Below are positions 5,831 to 31,400 of a stretch of DNA of 64,000 nucleotides, piece by piece. Below the pieces are notes generated by a model. It ran no database searches and was not told the DNA's origin. It was given only the letters and a program-made list of their open reading frames with translations. This DNA is from Bacilli bacterium. GTDB lineage: Bacteria; Bacillota_I; Bacilli_A; RF39; UBA660. The stretch's first letter is position 1. The number at the start of each line of letters is the position of its first letter. The stretch lies in the NCBI GenBank assembly GCA_017438635.1, contig JAFRUZ010000016.1:8627-72626 (forward strand). Direction: 5' to 3'. The position numbers and the translations under genes were made by a program.

Positions 5831-7453
5831 TTATCTTATCTCAACAATATCATTACCAAAAACATCTTTAGCTATCTTTAAAGCCTCAGAATCATCATCG
5901 GTAGATTCATCATCTATTATAACATTATTTTTCAAATCATGTTCCATATATTCATACTTTTTACCATTTTTAACATCAGAAACATACTTATCCCTAAGTT
6001 TATTCCACTCATCAGATAAAACAAAAACAATATTATAAGATTTACCCATAACCAAATTAAACAAAAGTTCAAGTTTAGTAATATTATTATTCCCATTATC
6101 AACAATAGAATCATAATCAGCAGAAAGAATAACATCTTCCTTTCCTACAACCTCAACATTAGAATCCAAAAAATAAGAAACCAAAGAAGAAAACTCCTTA
6201 TTATGAACATAATCATAAAAGCCTTTCCACTTATTAACAATATCATTTTTTAAATCCTTACTTGCCAAAGCAAAAGCATTATTAACAACAATATCAAAGT
6301 CATTACGGCGTTTAACAAACATTTGTTTTTCTTCAACAACAGTTTCATCTTTGCCAACTTCATCATCAGAAATAACTTTAGCTAACAAAGAAGTATCAGT
6401 AACAACCTCCTTCTCCTCAACAGTAGTAACATCAGAAAGAGAATTCATAATCTTAAGAATTTCAATTTCAAAAAACAACATAGGATTGTAAGAACTTCTA
6501 AGACCATTAAAAATAAAACTAACCCCATCAACAATCTTAATAAAATCAGCATTAGAAATAGATAAAGATTCAGAAACACTCAAAGATCTAACATAAGAAA
6601 GAAGTTGTTCAGTAATCAATTCAATACTCTTACCATAATTAACAAGCCTTTCAATAGAATCAAATACCTTTTTCCTATCAGAATTACAAATATCCACAAA
6701 AAGTTCAGCAATAATGTCATCATCAACAAGGCCTACAACATCATAAAACAATTCAGTATTAATAACATTAGAATATGAAAGTAGCTTATCAAGTAAACCA
6801 ATAGAATCACGCATTCCACCATTACAATAAGTAGCAATAAGACGTAAAGCCTCAGAATCAGCATCAATTCCTTCCTTAGAACAAATATTAGATAAACAAC
6901 TAACAATATCCTTAACACTAATACGTTTAAAATCATAACATTGACATCTAGAAATAATAGTTTCAGGAACCTTATTAATCTCAGTAGTGGCAAGAATAAA
7001 AATAACATGTTCAGGTGGTTCCTCTAAAGTTTTCAACAAAGCATTAAAAGCACTAGAAGAAAGCATATGAACTTCATCAATTATATAAACCTTATATTTA
7101 GAAACACTAGGCATCAAAACAACACTGTCACGAATAGACCTAATCTCATCGACACCATTATTTGAAGCAGCATCAATTTCAATAATATCAGGATTACTTC
7201 TATCATTAATAAGCAAACAACTATTACATTTATCGCAAGGATCAAACTTTTTTAGTTTTGAACAATTAACAATCTTAGCAAGAAGCTTAGCAACAGTAGT
7301 CTTACCAGTACCCCTTGGACCCGAAAACAAATAAGCATGCATAAATTTATTATTCAAAATAGAGTTTTTAACAATTTTAACAATATATTCTTGTCCATAA
7401 ATCTCATCCAATTTCTTAGGACGATATTTACGATACAAAGCAACATATTCCAT
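5831..7453 (-). CDS. dnaX: DNA polymerase III gamma/tau subunit
   Basis: AAA+ clamp-loader motifs GPRGTGKTT, DEVHMLS and SRCQ. I place the start at ATG 7453 (MEYVALYRKYRP), preceded by GGGAG. The track start at 7501 adds 16 unlikely residues that overlap the predicted -10 element. Confidence 0.9.
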   Translation of the reverse strand: MEYVALYRKYRPKKLDEIYGQEYIVKIVKNSILNNKFMHAYLFSGPRGTGKTTVAKLLAKIVNCSKLKKFDPCDKCNSCLLINDRSNPDIIEIDAASNNGVDEIRSIRDSVVLMPSVSKYKVYIIDEVHMLSSSAFNALLKTLEEPPEHVIFILATTEINKVPETIISRCQCYDFKRISVKDIVSCLSNICSKEGIDADSEALRLIATYCNGGMRDSIGLLDKLLSYSNVINTELFYDVVGLVDDDIIAELFVDICNSDRKKVFDSIERLVNYGKSIELITEQLLSYVRSLSVSESLSISNADFIKIVDGVSFIFNGLRSSYNPMLFFEIEILKIMNSLSDVTTVEEKEVVTDTSLLAKVISDDEVGKDETVVEEKQMFVKRRNDFDIVVNNAFALASKDLKNDIVNKWKGFYDYVHNKEFSSLVSYFLDSNVEVVGKEDVILSADYDSIVDNGNNNITKLELLFNLVMGKSYNIVFVLSDEWNKLRDKYVSDVKNGKKYEYMEHDLKNNVIIDDESTDDDSEALKIAKDVFGNDIVEIR

Positions 7454-7493: not shown

Positions 7494-7545
7494 CAAGGCA
7501 CTAATTTATAAAATATGTTTTTATATAAAAAAACAAGAAATTATA

Positions 7546-7561
7546 TGTTTCACGTGAAACA
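7546..7561. promoter_or_regulatory. parS: parS site 1 (ParB/Spo0J centromere palindrome), perfect TGTTTCACGTGAAACA
   Basis: Exact 16-bp palindrome matching the Firmicute parS consensus TGTTNCACGTGAAACA; the palindrome extends to 7544-7563. Confidence 0.9.
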
Positions 7562-7576
7562 TAGTAAAAACACAAA

Positions 7577-7596
7577 ATTATTTCCCGGGAAATAAT
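7577..7596. promoter_or_regulatory. Noc-binding site (NBS) 1, ATTATTTCCCGGGAAATAAT
   Basis: Perfect 20-bp palindrome containing the B. subtilis NBS consensus (T)ATTTCCCGGGAAAT(A); identical to the copy at 8575-8594. Confidence 0.75.
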
Positions 7597-7731
7597 CAAA
7601 GTAAGAAAAATGTGCTTCCACAACATTTTTGCAAACAAGACACCCAAAAATGTAAAAAAATACAGACATGATTCAAAGAAAATACATAAATACAGTTAAC
7701 TTATTAACAATATAAACGTAAAAAAAATATA

Positions 7732-7747
7732 TGTTTCACGTGAAACA
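7732..7747. promoter_or_regulatory. parS: parS site 2, perfect
   Basis: TGTTTCACGTGAAACA; the palindrome extends to 24 bp (7728-7751). Confidence 0.9.
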
Positions 7748-7778
7748 TATACATCAAAACTAAACAAAACAAACAATA

Positions 7779-7794
7779 TGTTTCACGTGAAACA
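7779..7794. promoter_or_regulatory. parS: parS site 3, perfect
   Basis: TGTTTCACGTGAAACA, immediately downstream of the tadA stop codon (7796-7798). Confidence 0.9.
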
Positions 7795-7795
7795 T

Positions 7796-8233
7796 CTATT
7801 CCAATGTTTCACGTGAAACATCACCCCTAATATTCTTAAAAAAATTCTTTATAAGATTAGCATAATTATTATCATTAAGCTTTTCATAATTAATATTAGA
7901 AATATTAACATCCAAATTATCAGAATAATTAGATTCAAGTAAATAAACAACCTTTTTAATTCTTGATTCAGCAATTGCAGCCTCACACATCTTACATGGC
8001 TTTAAAGTAACATACATAATGCATTCATCCAAATACCAAGATCCAAGCTTCTTACATGCATCAATAATAGATAGAATTTCAGCATGATATACAGAAATAC
8101 CTAAAGTGTTTTTAACATTATGCGAAAAAGAAACAATCTTATCATTCATAACAATCACAGCGCCAACAGGAACATTTCCTTCATTATAAGCCTTTACTGC
8201 TTCATCAAAAGCTTTCTTCATATATTTATTCAT
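7796..8233 (-). CDS. tadA: tRNA-specific adenosine deaminase TadA
   Basis: CDA-fold zinc motifs HAE (VYHAEILSI) and PCKMC. Start placed at ATG 8233 (MNKYMKKAFDEA) behind the RBS AGAGGTGA. The track start at 8263 (MFHVKHRGDC) is simply parS site 5 read as codons. Confidence 0.9.
   Translation of the reverse strand: MNKYMKKAFDEAVKAYNEGNVPVGAVIVMNDKIVSFSHNVKNTLGISVYHAEILSIIDACKKLGSWYLDECIMYVTLKPCKMCEAAIAESRIKKVVYLLESNYSDNLDVNISNINYEKLNDNNYANLIKNFFKNIRGDVSRETLE
7805..7820. promoter_or_regulatory. parS: parS site 4, perfect, inside the last codons of tadA
   Basis: TGTTTCACGTGAAACA; read on the minus strand it encodes the C-terminal ..DVSRETLE of the tadA ORF. Confidence 0.9.
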
Positions 8234-8246
8234 ACAATCACCTCTA

Positions 8247-8262
8247 TGTTTCACGTGAAACA
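8247..8262. promoter_or_regulatory. parS: parS site 5, perfect, abutting the tadA ribosome-binding site
   Basis: TGTTTCACGTGAAACA; it ends 1 nt from the RBS complement at 8238-8245. Confidence 0.9.
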
Positions 8263-8312
8263 TATATATTCAAAACTTATTAACAATCATAAACTAAAAA
8301 ACAAATAAACAA

Positions 8313-8328
8313 TGTTTCACGTGAAACT
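8313..8328. promoter_or_regulatory. parS: parS site 6, 15/16 match (TGTTTCACGTGAAACT)
   Basis: One mismatch, at the last position. Confidence 0.8.
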
Positions 8329-8353
8329 ATAAAACAACAAAAATAGAATTGCA

Positions 8354-8369
8354 TGTTTCACGTGAAACA
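8354..8369. promoter_or_regulatory. parS: parS site 7, perfect
   Basis: TGTTTCACGTGAAACA, about 22 bp downstream of the SRP RNA 3' T-tract. Confidence 0.9.
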
Positions 8370-8390
8370 TATAGCATATCAATATAAACA

Positions 8391-8465
8391 AAAAGTGCAC
8401 ACACATAGAGGACCTTAAGGCTGCTATCTTCCGATCCTGACCTAGTTCAATCATATGTGTTGCAC
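8391..8465 (-). ncRNA. ffs: Signal recognition particle RNA, short (4.5S-like) form, ~75 nt
   Basis: The minus strand reads GTGCAACACATATGATTGAACTAGGTCAGGATCGGAAGATAGCAGCCTTAAGGTCCTCTATGTGTGTGCAC followed by TTTTT. The core AGGTCAGGATCGGAAGATAGCAGCC matches the universal SRP helix-8 motif (GGUCAGGUCCGGAAGGAAGCAGCC, GGAA tetraloop). The ends pair into a long closing helix, and a promoter lies directly upstream. The tadA-ffs-dnaX neighbourhood is conserved in Bacillus. Confidence 0.75.
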
Positions 8466-8471
8466 GAATTA

Positions 8472-8500
8472 ATAATACAATAAAGTACAAATAAAGTCAA
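8472..8500 (-). promoter_or_regulatory. Promoter of ffs (TTGACT - 17 nt - TATTAT)
   Basis: Reverse complement: -35 TTGACT (8495-8500), 17-nt spacer, -10 TATTAT (8472-8477), 6 nt before the first G of the SRP closing helix. Confidence 0.6.
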
Positions 8501-8509
8501 TACTCCCAA

Positions 8510-8525
8510 TGTTTCACGTGAAACA
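8510..8525. promoter_or_regulatory. parS: parS site 8, perfect
   Basis: TGTTTCACGTGAAACA, 10 bp upstream of the ffs -35 element. Confidence 0.9.
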
Positions 8526-8574
8526 TATACTTTTCTTCTAAAAAGTGCTCTCGTAATACATTTTTAAGAATCAT

Positions 8575-8594
8575 ATTATTTCCCGGGAAATAAT
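8575..8594. promoter_or_regulatory. Noc-binding site (NBS) 2, ATTATTTCCCGGGAAATAAT
   Basis: Identical 20-bp palindrome to 7577-7596, lying 5 bp beyond the gyrA terminator T-tract. Confidence 0.75.
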
Positions 8595-8599
8595 TCATC

Positions 8600-8632
8600 A
8601 AAAAAAAAGTGAATAGCATAATTACTATTCAC
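8600..8632 (-). terminator. Intrinsic terminator of gyrA
   Basis: Minus strand GTGAATAG-taattatg-CTATTCAC followed by T9; the stem overlaps the gyrA stop codon. Confidence 0.7.
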
Positions 8633-11087
8633 TTACAACATTATCAACAGTTTCCTCAGAATATTCCTCATCTGCCTTCTGAGTAATAGTAACAGAAGTA
8701 ACAGACTGATTATCCCTTAAATTCATCAATCTTACACCTTGAGTATTCCTACGTAATGTCGAAATCTTACCTACTTCAAGTCTAATAACAGTACCTTCGT
8801 CAGTAGTCATAATAACATCTTCATCCCCTATTACAGACTTAAATGCAATAATAAGACCATTCTTTTCAGTAATATTAAGAGCCTTAACTCCTTTTCCACC
8901 ACGATGAGTAAGCCTATATTCATCAGTTTCAGTCTTCTTACCATAACCCTTTTCAGTCACAACAAGAATAAGTTTCGAAGAATCAGCAATCTCTGCACCA
9001 ATCAAATAAGTATCAGACATATCAATTCCCTTAACTCCTGAAGCACTTCTACCCATAACACGTACTTCATTTTCATTAAATCTAACCATTCTACCAGCAT
9101 TTGAAGCCATAATAACCTCATTTTCACCAGAAGTTTTCTTAACACTAGCAAGCATATCGCCTTCCTTTAACGTAATAGCAATCTTACCAGTTTTACGTAT
9201 AGATTCAAATTCATCAACATCAGTTCTCTTAACAAGGCCATTTCTAGTAAAGAACATCAAATACTTAGAATCATCGTCTTTAGAAACAGGAATAATAGTA
9301 TTAACAATCTCATCCTTTTCCAAAGGCAAGATATTAACAATAGGAACACCCTTAGATTGCCTACTGAACTCTGGTATTTCATATCCCTTAACACGATAAA
9401 CCTTACCAAAATTACTAAAGAATAACAAATGATCATGTGTATCACAAGTTATTAACATTTCAACATAGTCTTCATCATTAGTAGACATACCCTTAATACC
9501 AACACCACCACGATTTTGACTACGATAAGTATCAGATACCAATCTCTTAATATAACCACGTTTAGTCATAGAAATAACAACATTATCATTAGGAATAAGA
9601 GATTCATCATCAATATAGTCAATAGCAGTCATATCAATATCAGTACGTCTTTCATCACTATATTTTTCTTTAATTTCAAGAAGTTCTTCCTTGATAATAG
9701 CTAAAACTCTCTCTTCAGAAGCAAGAATAGCCTTGTATTCAGTAATCTTTTCAAGAAGTTCAGCAAGTTCACTCTCAATTTTTTCCCTTTCAAGACCAGT
9801 AAGCCTTCTAAGTCTCATTTCAAGAATAGCATTTGCTTGAGTTTCAGTAAGACCAAATCTAGTCATTAAACCATTACGAGCAACCTCATCATCACGAGCA
9901 GCTCTGATAAGCTTAATAACTTCGTCTATATTATTAAGAGCTATTATATAGCCTTCCAAAATATGTACCCTTTTTTCAGCCTTATCAAGATCAAACTTAG
10001 TTCTACGAATAATAATTTCCTTTTGAAAATCAATATATTTAGAAATAATATCTTTAAGTCCTAAACTCTTAGGAACTCCTTGATCAAGCATCAAAAAGTT
10101 AATACCATAGTTTATTTGAAATTGCGTATGCTTATACAAATTGTTTAAAACAACTTGTGGATTAGCATCTCTTTTCAAAGTAATAGTAATCTTAATACCA
10201 TCCTTTAAATCAGTATGATAATCAGAAATACCATCTATAACCTTGTTATGAACAAGTTCCGCTACCTTATTCTTTAATTCAGAAGTATTAACACCATAAG
10301 GAACTTCATCAATAATTATATAGTTTTTACCATTTTTTTCCTCTATAGTAGCACGACTTCTAATAGTAATACTTCCCCTACCAGTCTCATAAGCCTTACG
10401 AATACCGCTATTACCAAGAATAATAGCACCAGTAGGAAAATCAGGTCCTTTAACATGTTTCATTAATTCATCCAAAGTAACCTCTGGATTATCAATATAC
10501 GCTACACAACCATCAATAACTTCCCCTAAATTATGTGGTGGTATATTTGTAGCCATACCAACAGCAATACCCATAGTACCATTAACCAAAATATTAGGAA
10601 ATCTACTAGGTAAAATACTAGGTTCAACCTCAGATTCATCAAAATTTGGTTCAAAATCAACAGTATTCTTATTAATATCACGCAATAATTCTAATGACAT
10701 TCTAGAAAGTCTAGATTCAGTATAACGCATCGCTGCTGCTCCATAACCTTCAATATTACCAAAGTTTCCATGTCCATCAACAAGCATATAACGATAATTG
10801 AAGTCTTGAGCCATTCTAACCATAGCTTCATAGATTGAACTATCTCCATGAGGGTGATATTTACCCATAACATCCCCAACAATTCTAGCACTCTTCTTAT
10901 GAGGTTTTTCAGGAGTATAACCAGATTCGTACATAGAATAAAGAATTCTACGATGAACAGGTTTAAGACCATCTCTTAAATCAGGAAGAGCACGTGAAAC
11001 AATAACACTCATTGAATATTCTAGGAATGATGTTTCAATTTCATTAACTATATTATTTTCTTGTAATCTATCTCTATTATCATCCAT
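8625..11087 (-). CDS. gyrA: DNA gyrase subunit A
   Basis: 820 aa; [24 protein letters not shown], the QRDR-region [13 protein letters not shown], and beta-pinwheel repeats. Confidence 0.97.
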
Positions 11088-14233: not shown

Positions 14234-14704
14234 TTAACCGTTTTTTTTACTATTTTTCCTATTATTTGAGACAGCTTCTAACATATTACATCTAAAAATC
14301 TGATTCTTAATAGAAAAATAAGGACAATCTACAATAATAAAATTATCATTAATAAATATAATTTTGGACTTTTTATTATATTTTTCAACATGTTTTATAT
14401 TTTTATAAGACAACCACCCTACACTTTCTGATTGAATAGCTTCAGTAGGAAAAAATATAAGTTTTTGTGATTCTTCAACAATAACAGGAGTTTTATATAT
14501 ACTTCCAAGTATATCTTTAGAACCAAGCATTCTACCCTCTAAACTACTACCAAAGTACTTACAACTATGTTCCATAACCTCATAAGGAGTCTCTTTTACT
14601 ATGTATTCGTCATCCTTTTCAATAATTCTAGTACTCTGCTCATCAAAAGGAATAATAGCCAAAGTACTATCATTTATCTCATATTTAATATAATTCACCC
14701 CCAA
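14234..14704 (-). CDS. comK: Competence transcription factor ComK family protein
   Basis: 156 aa. Blocks YEINDSTLAIIP, IIEKD..Y.V, SCKYFGSSLEGR, KTPVIV, LIFFPT and VGWLSY align with B. subtilis ComK (YEVNGATIAVLP, SCRFFGSSYAGR, KPPIMV, IFLFPT, CGWISH) as I recall that sequence. Confidence 0.8.
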   Translation of the reverse strand: MGVNYIKYEINDSTLAIIPFDEQSTRIIEKDDEYIVKETPYEVMEHSCKYFGSSLEGRMLGSKDILGSIYKTPVIVEESQKLIFFPTEAIQSESVGWLSYKNIKHVEKYNKKSKIIFINDNFIIVDCPYFSIKNQIFRCNMLEAVSNNRKNSKKNG

Positions 14705-15925: not shown

Positions 15926-16070
15926 TTTAAAACCTTCTTTCTTATTTTTTTATATTTTTTATAGTAATTATATTAATACTGTTAACAATGTTAATAACCC
16001 TCAAAGTCCTTTATTTATAAGGAAAAAACAGCTTTTTTTATGTTAATTATTGTTAACAGTTTTAACAAAG
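15926..16070. promoter_or_regulatory. oriC: oriC module between dnaA and dnaN: variant DnaA-box 9-mers plus an AT-rich tract
   Basis: TGTTAACAA (15980-15988) directly abuts TGTTAATAA (15989-15997). TGTTAATTA lies at 16041-16049 and TGTTAACAG at 16051-16059. 15930-15975 is almost pure A/T and lies next to the dnaN start. Confidence 0.6.
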
Positions 16071-17799: not shown

Positions 17800-18276
17800 T
17801 TATTTAGTATTAAATATAAAAACATCCTCTCCTCCATCATTTTTAATAATGTAATTACCATTAGTATATTCATTTATTACATTTTTCCAAAATGAATAAG
17901 CAACAGGATTATTTGCCATAGGTTGAACTTCCCAAAAACCAGGAAACATATTAAAAATATCATGTGCTACTCTTTGTCCAATATGATTTCTTCTATATAT
18001 AGGCATAATCAAAAATTCTGCTACAGATTTACCTTCTTTATTAAATTTTAAGTTTTCATTAACAAGAACCATTCCTAAAAAATTTTTGTTATTTTTTATA
18101 AAATAAGCATTTCTATCATTATCAGAAAAATAATTATCAAACCAATTATATTCAAAAATACAATTTTCATTAATTTCATTATCAACATAAAATGATCCAT
18201 CATATAAAGCATATTGTAATAACCTATATAATTTATCTTTTTCTTCTAATTTAGCTTCAACTATTTCATAATCCAT
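17800..18276 (-). CDS. GNAT-family acetyltransferase
   Basis: 158 aa; the acetyl-CoA binding-like segment IMPIYRRNHIGQRVAHDIF; lies between dnaA and rpmH. Confidence 0.7.
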   Translation of the reverse strand: MDYEIVEAKLEEKDKLYRLLQYALYDGSFYVDNEINENCIFEYNWFDNYFSDNDRNAYFIKNNKNFLGMVLVNENLKFNKEGKSVAEFLIMPIYRRNHIGQRVAHDIFNMFPGFWEVQPMANNPVAYSFWKNVINEYTNGNYIIKNDGGEDVFIFNTK

Positions 18277-26821: not shown

Positions 26822-28216
26822 ATGAACTTAGAAAAAGAAATTTTTGACATAGCGTTACAAGATTTAATACCAAATAGGTTCCAACCACGTGAAATATTTA
26901 ACGATAAAGAACTTTCAGAATTAGCAGATTCAATAAAACAACACGGAGTAATACAACCAATAATAGTTCGTAAAGTTGGAGATAAATATGAAATAATTGC
27001 AGGAGAACGTCGTTTTAGGGCTTCTCAACTTGCTGGAAAAGAAACTATCCCTGCTTTAGTAAGAGATATAGATGATAAAGAAGCTGCAAAAATAGCATTG
27101 CTTGAAAACCTTCAAAGAAGTAATCTAACACCAATAGAAGAAGCAAAAACATATCAAACAATACTAAAAATAGATAATATAACTCAAGATGAATTAGCAA
27201 ATAATCTAGGAAGATCACAATCAACAATAGCTAATAAATTAAGATTGTTAACATTGGCAGAAGAAGTTCAAACAGCTCTATTAAACTCACAAATATCAGA
27301 AAGACATGCAAGAAGTCTATTAGGACTAACAAATGAACAACAAGTAGCATTACTTCATAAAACAATAGAAGAAAAGTTAACAGTTAGACAATTGGATGAA
27401 GAAATAATGAAATTAACAGGTAGGGCACCTGAAAATAACGAAGTAGACTACACTTTAGCAGAAGGAGAAACAAATATGAATAATAATTTTCCAAATATGA
27501 ACAACACTATAGGAGTTTCACAAGTTACAATGCCTAATAACGTTAATACAGAAAGCCCAGTAATAACTGAAAATAATGTGCCAGTAGAACCTGTTATAAA
27601 TATACCAACAGTGGATATTCCGCCAGCAGTAGAAGAAAATGTACAACCAGTAAATGAAGTATTTCAACCAGCACCTGAAAATAATAACCCAATAGAAAAC
27701 ACACCAAATACTGAAGTAGTTGCTCCGCCAACAATAGAAATGCCAGTAATGGATAATAATCTAAATCCATTACCAGAAGCAACTGAAACAAATGTAATAG
27801 AAGAAAATCCACAAGAAGAACCTATTATGGAACAACCTATTACTGAACCAGTAATAGAACCAAATTCAAATGAACCAACAGTAGAACAAAGGCCTCAAAT
27901 TACAGAAGCAGGAAACAATGAACCACAAGTAGCAGCAGCAAGAGAAGAAAATATATTTGATAAATTAAGAGTAACTAGAGAAGAAACAGAACAAGAAAAC
28001 AAATTTGATTTAAAAACACCAGATTTAAATATGGTAATAGAAAATCAAATAAATTCCCAAGAAGAACAACAAACAGATATGTATGATATGAGATTTGCGA
28101 TAAATAATTTTAGACAAGCTGTTCAAAATACTGAAAAATTTGGATTCAAAGTAAATACAACTGAAAATGATCTTGGAGATAAATATCAATTAATAATAGA
28201 AATAGACAAAAAATAA
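26822..28216 (+). CDS. noc: ParB-family nucleoid occlusion protein (Noc-like) with a long low-complexity insertion
   Basis: 464 aa. ParB box GERRFRA. HTH/recognition region RSQSTIANKLRLLTL...ISERHARSLL resembles B. subtilis Noc (QSTIANKLRLL, ITERHARAL). The C-terminus RFAINNFRQAVQNTEKFGFKVNT...YQLIIEIDKK resembles the Noc C-terminal domain. Position after rsmG. Residues ~200-415 are a Pro/Glu/Asn/Val-rich linker. Confidence 0.8.
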   Translation: MNLEKEIFDIALQDLIPNRFQPREIFNDKELSELADSIKQHGVIQPIIVRKVGDKYEIIAGERRFRASQLAGKETIPALVRDIDDKEAAKIALLENLQRSNLTPIEEAKTYQTILKIDNITQDELANNLGRSQSTIANKLRLLTLAEEVQTALLNSQISERHARSLLGLTNEQQVALLHKTIEEKLTVRQLDEEIMKLTGRAPENNEVDYTLAEGETNMNNNFPNMNNTIGVSQVTMPNNVNTESPVITENNVPVEPVINIPTVDIPPAVEENVQPVNEVFQPAPENNNPIENTPNTEVVAPPTIEMPVMDNNLNPLPEATETNVIEENPQEEPIMEQPITEPVIEPNSNEPTVEQRPQITEAGNNEPQVAAAREENIFDKLRVTREETEQENKFDLKTPDLNMVIENQINSQEEQQTDMYDMRFAINNFRQAVQNTEKFGFKVNTTENDLGDKYQLIIEIDKK

Positions 28217-28243: not shown

Positions 28244-29584
28244 TTAATACCACATATCAGTATACAAACCATCCTCTTTATAATAATCATCTAAAAGAAC
28301 AGTTTGAACAAACTCATCAGCAGCCTCTGCAAAAGTGTAAGTATTAATAACAGGACCACCAAAAGTCCAAAGTGATTCTGCTACATAAACATGTTCATCA
28401 TCAATACCAGCAACAATAGCAATATGTCCCCAAACACCAAGTAAATCACCGGCTTTTACTTTACCTGATTTGAACAATTTAACAGAAGTATCAACCTTTT
28501 CTCCACCAATATCATTAATTTCATTAGTATCTTCAAGATTATCTCCAGCACCTTTGTCACCAGGATCATATCCGCCATTAACTATACTCCATGAAACAAA
28601 ACCACTACAATCAAGACCATTAGGTTTATATTGACCTTTCTTAAATACAGTTCCCCAATCTTCATAATTTCGAAGAGGGCATCCCCATATTGCAGGACCT
28701 GCAAAAGAGTATTTTAAATCTTTAAATTTTGATTCGTGTAAATAAAGTCCCTTATGATAATACCTTCCTTCACCATCAGCATTATGCATACCACCATCAA
28801 TTCTACCGTTTTCGAAGAAATATTCAACTTGATAAGGGAAATCAAGCATTAAAAATCTAATAGATTCAACAACAGCAGCACGTGTGCCATAACCACCAAC
28901 TGCTTCAATTTTACTTTTTAAAATATTATCAATCTTCTGAGATTCTACCTTAGAATAATGATTACAAGGTAAATTTGGTTTATTCTTATTAAACTTTTTA
29001 GGTCTCTTAGTAATCAAATTAGTAACTTCAACTTCAAAAGTCTTAGAATAACTATCATTAACAGTCATTTTAACTTTTGTTTTACCAACCTTCTTGGCAA
29101 CTAGTTTATTACCCTTAACAACAACCACTTTATTATTGGAAGCTTTATAAACAATATTTTTCTTATTACCAATAATAGTAAGATTAGGATTTATCTTAGT
29201 AGAATCATTAACTGCTAAGTATATTTTTTTAGGTAAACTATCACTAACTACTAAATTATCTATAGCAAACTTTTGTATAAAAACATTATATTTTTTAATA
29301 TAAACATCAGTAAGATTACTATCTACCTTTAACTGACACTCATTATTAACAACATCCACCCAGCCTGTAGCAACAGAACTATCTTTACTACTGTAACCAC
29401 ACCTAACTCCGTCTTCTAAATTAGTTATCTTTAAAACAAGCTCATCTTTGCCAGACTCCTTAATACTTAAATTATTTAAAACATCTAATTTATAGAAAGA
29501 GTTTAAAAAATAATAAACAGTAATTAAGCAACCACCTATAATAAAGAAGATGAAAGCGAAAAAAATTAAAACTCCCTTTTTCAT
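28244..29584 (-). CDS. Secreted/anchored cell-wall hydrolase: N-terminal TM/signal, Ig-like (Big_2-like) domain, NlpC/P60-type Cys peptidase domain
   Basis: 446 aa; hydrophobic N-terminus; LDCSGFVSW (catalytic Cys) and GHIAIVAG (His). Confidence 0.7.
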   Translation of the reverse strand: MKKGVLIFFAFIFFIIGGCLITVYYFLNSFYKLDVLNNLSIKESGKDELVLKITNLEDGVRCGYSSKDSSVATGWVDVVNNECQLKVDSNLTDVYIKKYNVFIQKFAIDNLVVSDSLPKKIYLAVNDSTKINPNLTIIGNKKNIVYKASNNKVVVVKGNKLVAKKVGKTKVKMTVNDSYSKTFEVEVTNLITKRPKKFNKNKPNLPCNHYSKVESQKIDNILKSKIEAVGGYGTRAAVVESIRFLMLDFPYQVEYFFENGRIDGGMHNADGEGRYYHKGLYLHESKFKDLKYSFAGPAIWGCPLRNYEDWGTVFKKGQYKPNGLDCSGFVSWSIVNGGYDPGDKGAGDNLEDTNEINDIGGEKVDTSVKLFKSGKVKAGDLLGVWGHIAIVAGIDDEHVYVAESLWTFGGPVINTYTFAEAADEFVQTVLLDDYYKEDGLYTDMWY

Positions 29585-29752: not shown

Positions 29753-30532
29753 ATGGGGAAAGTAATTTCGTTAATAAACCAAAAGGGTGGAGTAGGAAAA
29801 ACAACGACCAGTATTAACTTAGCGGCATCACTTGCACTTTTAGGAAAAAGAGTATTATTAATAGATTTAGATCCACAATGTAATGCGACAACAGGAATAG
29901 GTTTGAATAAAGGTGATATAGAAAAAAGTATTTATAATGTTTTTAATGGAACATCAACAATAGAAGATGCAATAGTAAAGACAAAATATAAAAACTTATA
30001 TGTTTTACCAGCAAATATAAATTTAGCAGGAATTGACATTGAATTAGAACAGTCAAGAGAATACACAGGAGTATCAAAAGCGGAAAGACTAAAAAAACAC
30101 ATAGATAAGATTAGAGACAACTATGACTACATATTAATTGATTGTCCTCCAGCACTTGGAATAATCACAACAAACGCTTTAACAGCATCAGATTCAGTAA
30201 TAATTCCAGTACAATGTGAATTCTTTGCACTTGAAGGAATAACACAATTATTAAAAGCAATAATGTATACACAAGCAAATCTAAATCCAAACTTATCAAT
30301 AGAAGGGGTACTTCTAACAATGCTAGATGCTAGAACTAATTTAGGCCTTGAAGTAGTTGAAGAAATAAGAAGCTACTTTAAAGATAAAGTATATAACACA
30401 ATAATTCCAAGATTAATCAGATTAACAGAAGCACCATCACACGGAAAACCAATTGTGGCTTACGATCCAAAATCACGTGGATCTGAAGCATATTTAAATT
30501 TAGCGAAAGAGGTGATATTAGCAAATGAATGA
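29753..30532 (+). CDS. parA: Chromosome partitioning ATPase ParA/Soj
   Basis: 259 aa; the deviant Walker A NQKGGVGKTTT. Confidence 0.95.
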   Translation: MGKVISLINQKGGVGKTTTSINLAASLALLGKRVLLIDLDPQCNATTGIGLNKGDIEKSIYNVFNGTSTIEDAIVKTKYKNLYVLPANINLAGIDIELEQSREYTGVSKAERLKKHIDKIRDNYDYILIDCPPALGIITTNALTASDSVIIPVQCEFFALEGITQLLKAIMYTQANLNPNLSIEGVLLTMLDARTNLGLEVVEEIRSYFKDKVYNTIIPRLIRLTEAPSHGKPIVAYDPKSRGSEAYLNLAKEVILANE

Positions 30533-31400
30533 ACAACCTAAAAGAAGAGCATTAGGACGCGGGCTTGAAGAATTATTTAATATTGAGGACATAAACTACG
30601 ACAAAATAGAAGAAAAAATAATGGAAACAGCTGATGAAAGCGAAATTAAAGAAATTCCAATCGAAAAACTAAGAGTAAATCCATATCAACCAAGAAAAAC
30701 ATTTAATGAAGAATCTCTTAGAGAACTTGCAGAATCAATAAAAGAACATGGAGTAATACAACCAATAATAGTTAAAAAGAGCATAAAAGACTATGAAATA
30801 GTTGCAGGAGAAAGAAGATATAGAGCTTCAAAACTTGCAGGTAAAACAACAATTCCATGTATTATAAGAGATTTTACTGATGAACAAATGATGGAAATTG
30901 CGGTTCTTGAAAACTTACAAAGAGAAGATTTAAACTCTATAGAAGAAGCTTTAGGTATAGAAGCACTGATGAGAAATTTAAATTTAACTCAAGAACAAGT
31001 AGCAAAAAGAATAGGAAAAAGTAGAAGTTACATAACAAATATGTTAGGACTTTTAAATCTTCCTGCAGAAGTAAAAGAATTAGTAAAAAAAGGAAAAATA
31101 TCAACAAGTCATGCTAGAACATTATCAAAAATAGAAGACAAAGAAAAAATAGTAGAACTTGCTGATAAAATAGTAAACGAAAACTTAAATGTAAGACAAA
31201 TAGAAGAAGTATCAAAAGAAACTCCAAAAAGAGTAAAACAACAACATACAGAAAAAAATAGAGAATATCAACAATTAGAACAAGAATTAACAGATTATTT
31301 AGGAACAAGAGTAAAAATAAAGAATAAAAAGATAGAGATTAATTATGAAAATGACAATGATTTAAACAGAATACTAGAAATAATTAATTTTAATAAGTAG
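30525..31400 (+). CDS. parB: Chromosome partitioning protein ParB/Spo0J
   Basis: 291 aa; N-terminal RALGRGLEELF, GERRYRA box, HTH KSRSYITNMLGLLNL...ISTSHARTL; overlaps the parA stop. Confidence 0.95.
   Translation: MNEQPKRRALGRGLEELFNIEDINYDKIEEKIMETADESEIKEIPIEKLRVNPYQPRKTFNEESLRELAESIKEHGVIQPIIVKKSIKDYEIVAGERRYRASKLAGKTTIPCIIRDFTDEQMMEIAVLENLQREDLNSIEEALGIEALMRNLNLTQEQVAKRIGKSRSYITNMLGLLNLPAEVKELVKKGKISTSHARTLSKIEDKEKIVELADKIVNENLNVRQIEEVSKETPKRVKQQHTEKNREYQQLEQELTDYLGTRVKIKNKKIEINYENDNDLNRILEIINFNK

Follow-up and report, generated by a model that had tools for sequence, protein, structure and literature searches.

Why bacteria gather and cluster parS, the chromosome-partition sites at which ParB loads, when one suffices is an explicit open question (PMC7333895, PMC5815017), and it is raised in an acute form by a 64-kb stretch of chromosome from an uncultured, low-GC gut member of the Bacilli (contig JAFRUZ010000016.1, positions 8,627 to 72,626; hereafter the window), in which eight parS palindromes are packed between gyrA and dnaX. 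We find that these palindromes very probably constitute an origin-proximal centromere, and that the array is a composite one whose interspersed Noc-binding sites (NBS) most likely load an orthologue of Noc; the parS-centromere part of this reading is well supported by the sequence comparisons described below.

We defined parS matches by the 16-mer TGTTTCACGTGAAACA, which belongs to the consensus family TGTTNCACGTGAAACA (a pattern also written TGTTNCACGTGNAACA). Exact and mismatch scans of the window recover seven perfect copies, which have the 18-mer ATGTTTCACGTGAAACAT in common, together with one 15/16 copy, TGTTTCACGTGAAACT, and all eight sites fall inside 0.98 kb; the number of matches expected by chance is 0, none being found in 100 dinucleotide-preserving shuffles of the window. 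There is no further parS at up to three mismatches in the window, nor at up to two mismatches in the ~81 kb of contiguous sequence on the source contig (a metagenome contig of 120.7 kb in ENA), and within the window none lies in or near parB or parAB. The original prediction, made from the letters of the window without database searches, had given eight palindromes (seven perfect and the one at 8313 matching at 15/16), an 18-bp core in seven of them, centre-to-centre spacings of 186, 47, 26, 442, 66, 41 and 156 bp, and no other full site in the rest of the window; it had also placed parS4 in the end codons of tadA, parS5 beside the tadA ribosome-binding site (RBS) and parS8 10 bp from the -35 element of ffs, the gene for the small signal recognition particle (SRP) RNA. 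Our scans agree with it in each of these respects (Table 1).

The palindromes had also been assigned to the ParB/Spo0J form of parS, and this is borne out both by structural work and by the ParB encoded in the window, a protein of 291 residues that we refer to as ParB291. The 18-mer is found verbatim inside the duplex GATGTTTCACGTGAAACATC with which ParB-parS was crystallised (PMC7383237). The best solved relative of ParB291 is B. subtilis Spo0J (1e-63), and alignment with Spo0J gives R-M-N-S at positions 173, 179, 184 and 201 (Caulobacter numbering), the four positions that set the preference for parS or NBS. In a deep-mutational scan R173 is invariant in parS-specific variants and S201 is tolerated there; S or T at 201 is also typical of dual-specificity variants. 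ParB291 has no lysine at 179 or 184 and carries neither Q173 nor R201, and as judged from these residues it is of the parS type and lies within parS-specific sequence space. The cytidine triphosphate (CTP)-clamp motifs GERRYR and ENLQRE and the N-terminal ParA-stimulating peptide LGRGLEELF (RRALGRGLEELF) are all present.

We compared the locus in 14 further genomes (GC content 25-30%, DnaX 35-86% identical, and GyrA 68-74% identical in the deeper subset), gathered through a DnaX-seeded search of metagenome contigs for the deep clade and from the contigs of DnaX homologues for the close relatives; the first of these, made in JGI metagenomes, returned no close relative, the best match being 41%. 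The DNA sampled is origin-proximal throughout, with ~81 kb for the window genome and ~20 kb per relative. All 14 relatives have the gene order gyrB-gyrA-gap-ffs-tadA-gap-dnaX-ybaB-recR, and when the 15 genomes are pooled 78 parS-like sites (at most one mismatch) are located in 19.6 kb of gap as against 2 in 307 kb of flank; the comparison of the relatives' gyrA-ffs-tadA-dnaX spacers that had been proposed as a check on the array comes out in its favour. The number of copies in the gap is ~2-8 per genome (at most two mismatches), and in two relatives no parS was found on the noc-parAB side of oriC.

In the closest relative, L207 (DnaX 86% identical), all eight parS and both NBS have one-to-one orthologues, with identity at 127 of 128 parS positions and 28 of 28 NBS positions, as against 73% in the rest of the spacer columns (with 70 more columns of indels), 80% in tadA and 95% in ffs. 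Variation among 87 parS sites (at most two mismatches) is found at position 5 and its mirror, a known degenerate position of the consensus, and the palindrome is lost in 27 and kept in 3 of 30 variants, which argues that selection acts on the parS sequence and not on base-pairing. These comparisons show that the parS array keeps its position throughout a deep clade and, as read from the alignments, that it is under purifying selection at the DNA level. In several relatives the placement of parS at the 3′ ends of gyrA and tadA is conserved as well: a site starts on the base after the gyrA TAA stop (TAATGTTTCACGTG...) in L208 (8510), L209 (8737), L210 (8801) and L212 (8503), and on the base after the tadA TAA stop (again TAATGTTTCACGTG...) in L208 (9526), L209 (9705), L210 (9720) and L213 (9839). 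A different arrangement is seen in a more distant low-GC relative (L136/L172, GyrA 57% identical), where the gyrA-dnaX gap is without an array and four parS (9125, 11864, 14468 and 15904) are spread over ~7 kb downstream of dnaX in a more conventional dispersed pattern.

The original prediction had further proposed that the array grew by local duplication, for which the window itself offers little and a relative offers more. Spacings in the window are irregular (26-442 bp) and the site flanks only 62-76% alike, so that the array is not a regular tandem repeat, and the similarity between the spacers put forward as duplicates is marginal (score 15 against 11.4±1.9 in shuffled sequence, p ~0.05, in A-rich DNA). 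In L129, in contrast, positions 6880-7380 between gyrA and ffs hold ~4.5 tandem copies of a 119-bp unit, with a parS-like site and an NBS in each unit, so that the two kinds of site alternate strictly, which is direct evidence of growth by tandem duplication in which parS and NBS are co-amplified.

The NBS palindrome ATTTCCCGGGAAAT (extended form TTATTTCCCGGGAAATAAT; also written TATTTCCCGGGAAATA) occurs twice in the window against an expectation of 0.09, with no further copy in the ~81 kb, and both copies equal the B. subtilis Noc-binding-site duplex as crystallised (PMC7383237). NBS are present in the gap of 13 of the 15 genomes, with one to four per gap in the relatives carrying them, and amount to 27 copies in the 19.6 kb of gap against 11 in the 307 kb of flank, an enrichment of ~39-fold. 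Seven of the 11 flank copies represent one conserved perfect site in the hypervariable linker of DnaX, ~1.03-1.1 kb into dnaX (L208 11054, L209 11057, L210 11063, L211 2087, L212 11108, L127 9042 and L131 9067); the site is invariant and read IISRE, the neighbouring residues differ in every genome, and L128 has a perfect parS (9083, read VSRET) at this spot in place of the NBS. The NBS is absent from the DnaX linker of the window, L207 and L213, and the window has no parS there either. The remaining flank copies are three in L137 and one in L175. Across genomes 38 of 41 NBS are perfect and conservation extends over ~22 bp, more uniform than that of parS, and an NBS-parS pair ahead of dnaX recurs across the clade. 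The composite array of parS and NBS is conserved across the clade, a feature that the original prediction did not contain.

The candidate reader of these sites is the Noc orthologue encoded in the window, whose best PDB relatives are Noc (6e-58, 200 bits) and then Spo0J (185 bits), and whose specificity residues, Q-K-T-R, are of the NBS type (Q173/K179/R201); its CTP motifs GERRFR and ENLQR are intact. It falls below the cut-off of the NCBIfam Noc model TIGR04285 (294.1 vs 315 bits), and NCBI labels it only 'ParB/RepB/Spo0J family'. The protein consists of a conserved N-terminal 200 residues, a disordered, low-complexity linker of ~175 residues rich in N, P, E, T and V (residues ~200-375, window 27420-27950) whose length differs widely within the family, the conserved heptapeptide NIFDKLR, confined to the close clade, and directly after it a C-terminal domain of the Noc type. 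B. subtilis Noc requires an N-terminal amphipathic helix of 10 residues for membrane binding and nucleoid occlusion (PMC8429893, PMC7333895). The open reading frame (ORF) of the orthologue is maximal, starts MNLEKEIFDI and aligns to residue 26-27 of the Noc structures; because its start is only 16 residues before PNRFQPR there is no space for such a helix. Its 120 closest homologues have the short N-terminus in every case and Q-K-x-R in 111. An exhaustive search over 1.84 billion cluster representatives, of which the best 150 clusters were analysed, returned proteins almost all of the helix-less, long-linker type (350-800 aa, with linkers of up to ~500 aa). Among these 150 representatives at most 20 residues precede the PNRFQPR-type motif in 144, GERR is present in all 150, NIFDKLR is present in 2, and Q-K-x-R is found in 64 of the 66 that could be parsed (the other 84 did not fit the pattern). 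On this evidence the Noc orthologue belongs to a large uncharacterised family of at least 150 clusters at 50% identity.

How unusual is such an array? Caulobacter crescentus has 5 strong parS in 5 kb, ~8 kb from ori, and the four strongest parS of B. subtilis are 5-39 kb apart (PMC5815017); Corynebacterium glutamicum has 10 parS in 35 kb (PMC7083940), and S. coelicolor and L. innocua have ~20-23 near the origin (PMC7333895). The window array resembles those of Caulobacter, C. glutamicum, Streptomyces and Listeria innocua in its multiple canonical parS near the origin, but it is ~8-fold denser than that of Caulobacter and ~30-fold denser than that of C. glutamicum, and unlike these clustered chromosomal centromeres it is shared with sites for a second ParB-family protein. 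The description of the array as unusually dense thus stands with respect to model organisms and not with respect to other uncultured lineages, in which equal or denser arrays lie upstream of parA. A scan for two perfect parS 5-35 bp apart in 185,579 genomes, one per species, returned at least 120 loci from many phyla, and among the matches listed L081 (1014-1353, the Lachnospiraceae metagenome-assembled genome (MAG) CAVBGA010000065) has 8 parS with a 46-bp period in 340 bp, and the Clostridia MAGs L101 (7246-7498) and L092 (6491-6655) have 6 and 5. We have therefore rejected density as a unique feature on the strength of these loci, L081 in particular; the array is an extreme, yet not unique, case of parS clustering.

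Also among the matches listed, all 12 of the denser arrays that have a marker in range either adjoin the upstream side of parA or occupy the rsmG-parA spacer, and two dense loci in Streptococcus have no marker gene within 8 kb. The tight arrays listed from uncultured Clostridia, Actinomycetota and others are like that of the window in having 5-8 perfect parS in at most 1 kb. Those upstream of parAB are regular tandems in the rsmG-parA spacer without NBS, whereas the window array is irregular and composite, and noc and parA are 18 kb and 21 kb away from it across oriC. Only in this clade does the array occupy such a place, running through ffs and tadA with oriC between it and parAB. The independent arrays of L081, L101 and L092 resemble plasmid-style iterated centromeres or operators, on the chromosomes of uncultured Clostridia. 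Among iterated plasmid centromeres are the 12 43-bp repeats of F sopC, the P1/P7 parS and the Burkholderia Bsr (compare PMC5450999). They are like the window array in that many ParB-type sites in less than 1 kb nucleate one partition complex, and unlike it in that the window array is chromosomal, uses the universal parS, is irregularly spaced and is threaded through essential housekeeping genes; fixed-length tandem units with one site each are met in L129 (119 bp) and L081 (46 bp).

The closest parallels in a studied organism are with B. subtilis. The Spo0J/Soj/parS system has the identical 16-bp parS, a Spo0J-like ParB with CTP motifs and ParA-stimulating peptide, origin-proximal sites, and the oriC neighbourhood rpmH...mnmG-rsmG-noc-parA-parB...rpsF-ssb-rpsR; the window differs in having its sites confined to 0.98 kb, on the opposite side of oriC, and interleaved with ffs, tadA and NBS, and in B. 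subtilis one parS is located within spo0J. Noc and its sites are alike in the NBS palindrome, Q173/K179/R201, the CTP-switch motifs, the Noc-type C-terminal domain and the rsmG-noc-parA position, and differ in that the window orthologue is without the 10-aa helix, has a disordered 175-aa linker and falls below the NCBIfam cut-off, and in that the NBS of its clade are concentrated in the parS centromere and not only scattered. In sporulating B. subtilis RacA likewise joins Spo0J-parS at the origin as another DNA-binding protein, with origin-proximal sites of its own, and the clade has spoIIR, a spoVT-like gene and bofA; RacA does not belong to the ParB-family CTP clamps, and its ram sites extend over hundreds of kb. 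In a limited literature search we found no description of interleaved parS and NBS, of a helix-less Noc or of parS arrays in Clostridia.

The genes that flank and fill the array (dnaX, the tadA-like deaminase and gyrA) and those across the origin (mnmG, rsmG, parA and parB) were identified with NCBIfam and Pfam models; dnaA, dnaN, recF and gyrB were assigned by ORF position together with the genes called, and annotated with Pfam, on syntenic contigs of the relatives, and the tadA and dnaX starts (8233 and 7453) are those of gene calls on the source contig. Because the GC skew changes sign near 18 kb of the window, the array is placed ~9 kb from oriC, and the original prediction was right about both this distance and the gene context (gyrA, ffs, tadA, dnaX, dnaA, dnaN, recF and gyrB). 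After parS, NBS and ffs, the next motif to come out of an unbiased k-mer screen of the 15 gaps is ATTGTTAATA(A), with 23 copies in 9 genomes, almost all of them in a single orientation. The window has 15 copies of its complement TTATTAACA where 4.7 are expected, and further copies beyond the two in the array include those at 15989, 17515, 17553, 17565 and 17662 and an inverted pair at 2425/2439. The canonical DnaA box is TTATCCACA; since TTATTAACA has its clusters ahead of dnaA and between dnaA and dnaN, it is probably this lineage's own variant of the box.

Several other features of the origin region were noted. A ComK-family gene (14234-14704, minus strand) between dnaN and recF is kept in all close relatives; the corresponding slot in B. 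subtilis holds another small gene, yaaA/rlbA. Within the dnaA-rpmH spacer, in the oriC region, there is a 158-aa ORF without a Pfam match (17800-18276, minus strand), which looks like an insertion because the dnaA-rpmH spacing of L217, the closest relative there, is only ~320 bp. Between the noc orthologue and parA, and encoded on the other strand, is a 445-aa ORF (28244-29584, minus strand) for which faint hints of CHAP and hyaluronate lyase are the only clue; L217 has it, and the more distant L216 does not. Sporulation genes near the origin encode SpoIIR and an SpoVT-like regulator, with BofA in relatives (L215 2617-3147; L214 13999-14529; L211 3661-3846), and their presence there suggests that this uncultured Bacilli lineage forms endospores. 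The position of comK, the Bacillus-like oriC synteny, spoIIR and the spoVT-like gene all agree with a spore-former-like member of the Bacilli. A clostridial origin, which the GC content might suggest, was rejected in favour of Bacilli because of comK, the synteny around oriC and the NCBI label of identical proteins (Bacilli bacterium).

Table 1. Window coordinates of the sites of the array, the genes and signals around it, and the partition genes across the origin.
Feature	Position	Strand	Remarks
dnaX, 540 aa as called	5831-7453	-	NCBIfam/Pfam; bounds array
parS1, perfect	7546-7561	n/a	~90 bp upstream of dnaX start (7453)
NBS1, perfect	7580-7593	n/a	orthologous in L207
TTATTAACA (ATTGTTAATAAGT on gene strand), copy 1 in array	7701-7709	+	k-mer screen
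parS2, perfect	7732-7747	n/a	sequence match
parS3, perfect	7779-7794	n/a	immediately 3′ of tadA stop
tadA-like deaminase, 145 aa	7796-8233	-	NCBIfam/Pfam and source-contig gene calls; inside array
parS4, perfect	7805-7820	n/a	within final tadA codons, read DVSRET (DVSRETLE*)
parS5, perfect	8247-8262	n/a	adjoins tadA RBS AGAGGTGA, tadA start codon 8233
TTATTAACA motif, copy 2 in array	8277-8285	+	k-mer screen
parS6, 15/16, last base T	8313-8328	n/a	identical asymmetric variant in L207
parS7, perfect	8354-8369	n/a	10 bp past 3′ end of ffs model
ffs (small SRP RNA)	8379-8474	-	Rfam RF00169, 60.3 bits; inside array
parS8, perfect	8510-8525	n/a	10 bp upstream of ffs -35 (TTGACT, 8500-8495)
NBS2, perfect	8578-8591	n/a	16 bp past gyrA terminator T-tract
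gyrA intrinsic terminator	8607-8634	-	bounds array on gyrA side
Second box cluster, dnaA-dnaN spacer	15926-16070	n/a	TTATTAACA-type boxes
oriC part upstream of dnaA	17457-17800	n/a	rich in TTATTAACA/TGTTAATAA boxes
Noc orthologue, 464 aa	26822-28216	+	between rsmG and parA (rsmG-noc-parA-parB)
parA, 259 aa	29753-30532	+	NCBIfam/Pfam; adjoins and overlaps parB
parB, 291 aa (ParB291)	30525-31400	+	ParB_N, HTH_ParB and ParB_C domains

How might an array of this kind work? From established ParB biology we infer that dimers of ParB291 would recognise each parS and, on binding CTP, would close as clamps and slide away. Additional parS speed up the loading of clamps and stabilise condensation, and sliding is restricted by roadblocks (PMC8299390); it has been suggested that clustered parS concentrate ParB locally, for the activation of ParA (PMC5815017). 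Eight loading sites in less than 1 kb would be expected to raise the loading rate and to give a very dense ParB complex close to oriC, on which ParA would act, and this complex would probably load SMC, which is recruited at origin-proximal parS (PMC7333895); expression of tadA and ffs may also be affected. The NBS-type sites most likely load the Noc orthologue, a CTP-clamp paralogue that, having no helix, could not act like B. subtilis Noc unless it were to bind the membrane in another way; it would be placed on the centromere itself and would not anchor the bulk of the nucleoid in the membrane. Candidate roles for it are bounding or modulating ParB spreading, co-organising the origin, and coupling to replication control; since tightly bound proteins block sliding, ParB and Noc-like clamps loaded tens of bp apart could, speculatively, bound or modulate each other. 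We advance only tentatively the fuller proposal that an NBS-specific, helix-less Noc orthologue loads within the parS array as a second CTP clamp that shapes, bounds or couples the ParB complex, possibly together with the DnaA boxes of the gap. The helix-less form could represent a 'pre-nucleoid-occlusion' state, in which the specificity switch came before the helix, or a secondary re-purposing.

Several considerations weigh against a composite centromere of this kind. The organism is uncultured; the sampling is origin-proximal, so that parS or NBS may be present elsewhere in the genome; and several species segregate with one parS (PMC7333895, PMC7083940), so that eight may be more than is functionally needed. 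The gaps of L128 and L131 contain no NBS. Flank copies of NBS that lie neither in the gap nor in the dnaX linker occur at about one per 75-100 kb (in B. subtilis they are reportedly present at about one per 60 kb), so that the Noc-like protein may also act genome-wide, and ParB291 itself might touch NBS, since it has S and not G at 201, as is common in dual-specificity variants. Were the NBS incidental to the array, piling up there since the gap is one of few long non-coding stretches near the origin, the Noc orthologue would be an ordinary genome-wide nucleoid-occlusion factor attached to the membrane without an N-terminal helix. The few flank copies in L137 and L175 and the NBS-free gaps of L128 and L131 fit this account, and NIFDKLR could be an amphipathic segment relocated to the linker; however, the heptapeptide is confined to 2 of 150 representatives, and 120 of 120 homologues and nearly all 150 representatives have no room for an N-terminal helix. 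We regard this account as unlikely in view also of the ~39-fold gap enrichment over 15 genomes, the orthologous NBS of the window and L207 that are identical at 28 of 28 positions amid drifting spacers, the 119-bp units of L129 that each pair one parS with one NBS, and the recurrent NBS-parS pair before dnaX. It is distinctly improbable, in our estimation, that ParB291 alone reads both palindromes, with the NBS serving as variant ParB loading sites and the Noc-like paralogue acting elsewhere: while its S201 is typical of dual-specificity variants, ParB291 is without the permissive K or R at 179 and 184 that NBS binders usually need, a paralogue with Q173/K179/R201 is conserved beside the sites, and the greater uniformity of NBS (38 of 41 perfect, over ~22 bp) suggests a dedicated reader.

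The parS themselves might be thought to serve mainly in transcriptional control of ffs, tadA and dnaX, by ParB or another CACGTG-binding factor, with segregation as a secondary role. The array does present parS1 in the spacer of a promoter-like match, parS8 10 bp from the ffs -35 and parS5 beside the tadA RBS, and the dense parS arrays of other lineages occupy the parAB promoter region, for which the autoregulated par operons of plasmids provide a parallel. Promoter-like matches in the array stretch are nevertheless not above chance for this AT-rich DNA (10 against 8.9 expected), and we draw no regulatory claim from them; the number of sites and their position with respect to promoters vary in the relatives while the locus is constant, and with no parS near parAB the array would be the sole available centromere. 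We therefore hold this explanation to be very improbable. That the palindromes function at the RNA level, or are generic repeats (terminator hairpins, or elements resembling repetitive extragenic palindromic (REP) sequences or miniature inverted-repeat transposable elements (MITE)), and not protein-bound centromere sites, is so improbable that we scarcely entertain it. parS3 and parS4 together form a hairpin with a 19-bp stem (-27.8 kcal/mol, z = -8) and a U-rich tail at the 3′ end of tadA, which may be a candidate tadA terminator as a secondary role, and relatives place parS right after the TAA stops of gyrA and tadA. A lone parS, on the other hand, folds weakly (-6.3 kcal/mol), 27 of 30 variants break the palindrome, the CACGTG of the loop or core is invariant, gyrA has its own canonical terminator and some sites are upstream of promoters; an RNA hairpin or terminator as the primary role is rejected, on the sequence sampled, for the weak single-site folding and the uncompensated variants. 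A generic REP-like repeat, which the original prediction had itself named as a finding that would overturn it, was looked for and fails on all of the sequence sampled, and a REP-like or chance repeat is rejected on the 0 shuffle matches, the lack of copies elsewhere in 81 kb and the 78:2 split between gap and flank, with 2 copies in 307 kb of the relatives' flanks.

The clade that carries this composite centromere represents a natural extreme of parS clustering, with eight sites per kb that have long been kept at one locus through essential genes. Copy number within the array turns over (~2-8), and one relative directly shows growth by tandem duplication. With ParB- and Noc-type sites tens of bp apart, the locus offers a system for two orthogonal CTP sliding clamps on a short piece of DNA, where they might be roadblocks to each other or condense together. 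The helix-less Noc bears on the order of events by which Noc may have arisen from ParB, with a specificity switch first and membrane binding later. The analysis also draws attention to a large, uncharacterised family whose members automatic annotation calls no more than 'ParB/RepB/Spo0J family', and if the proposal made here is true, a centromere-acting Noc-like clamp would be an undescribed function for this family of at least 150 clusters at 50% identity.

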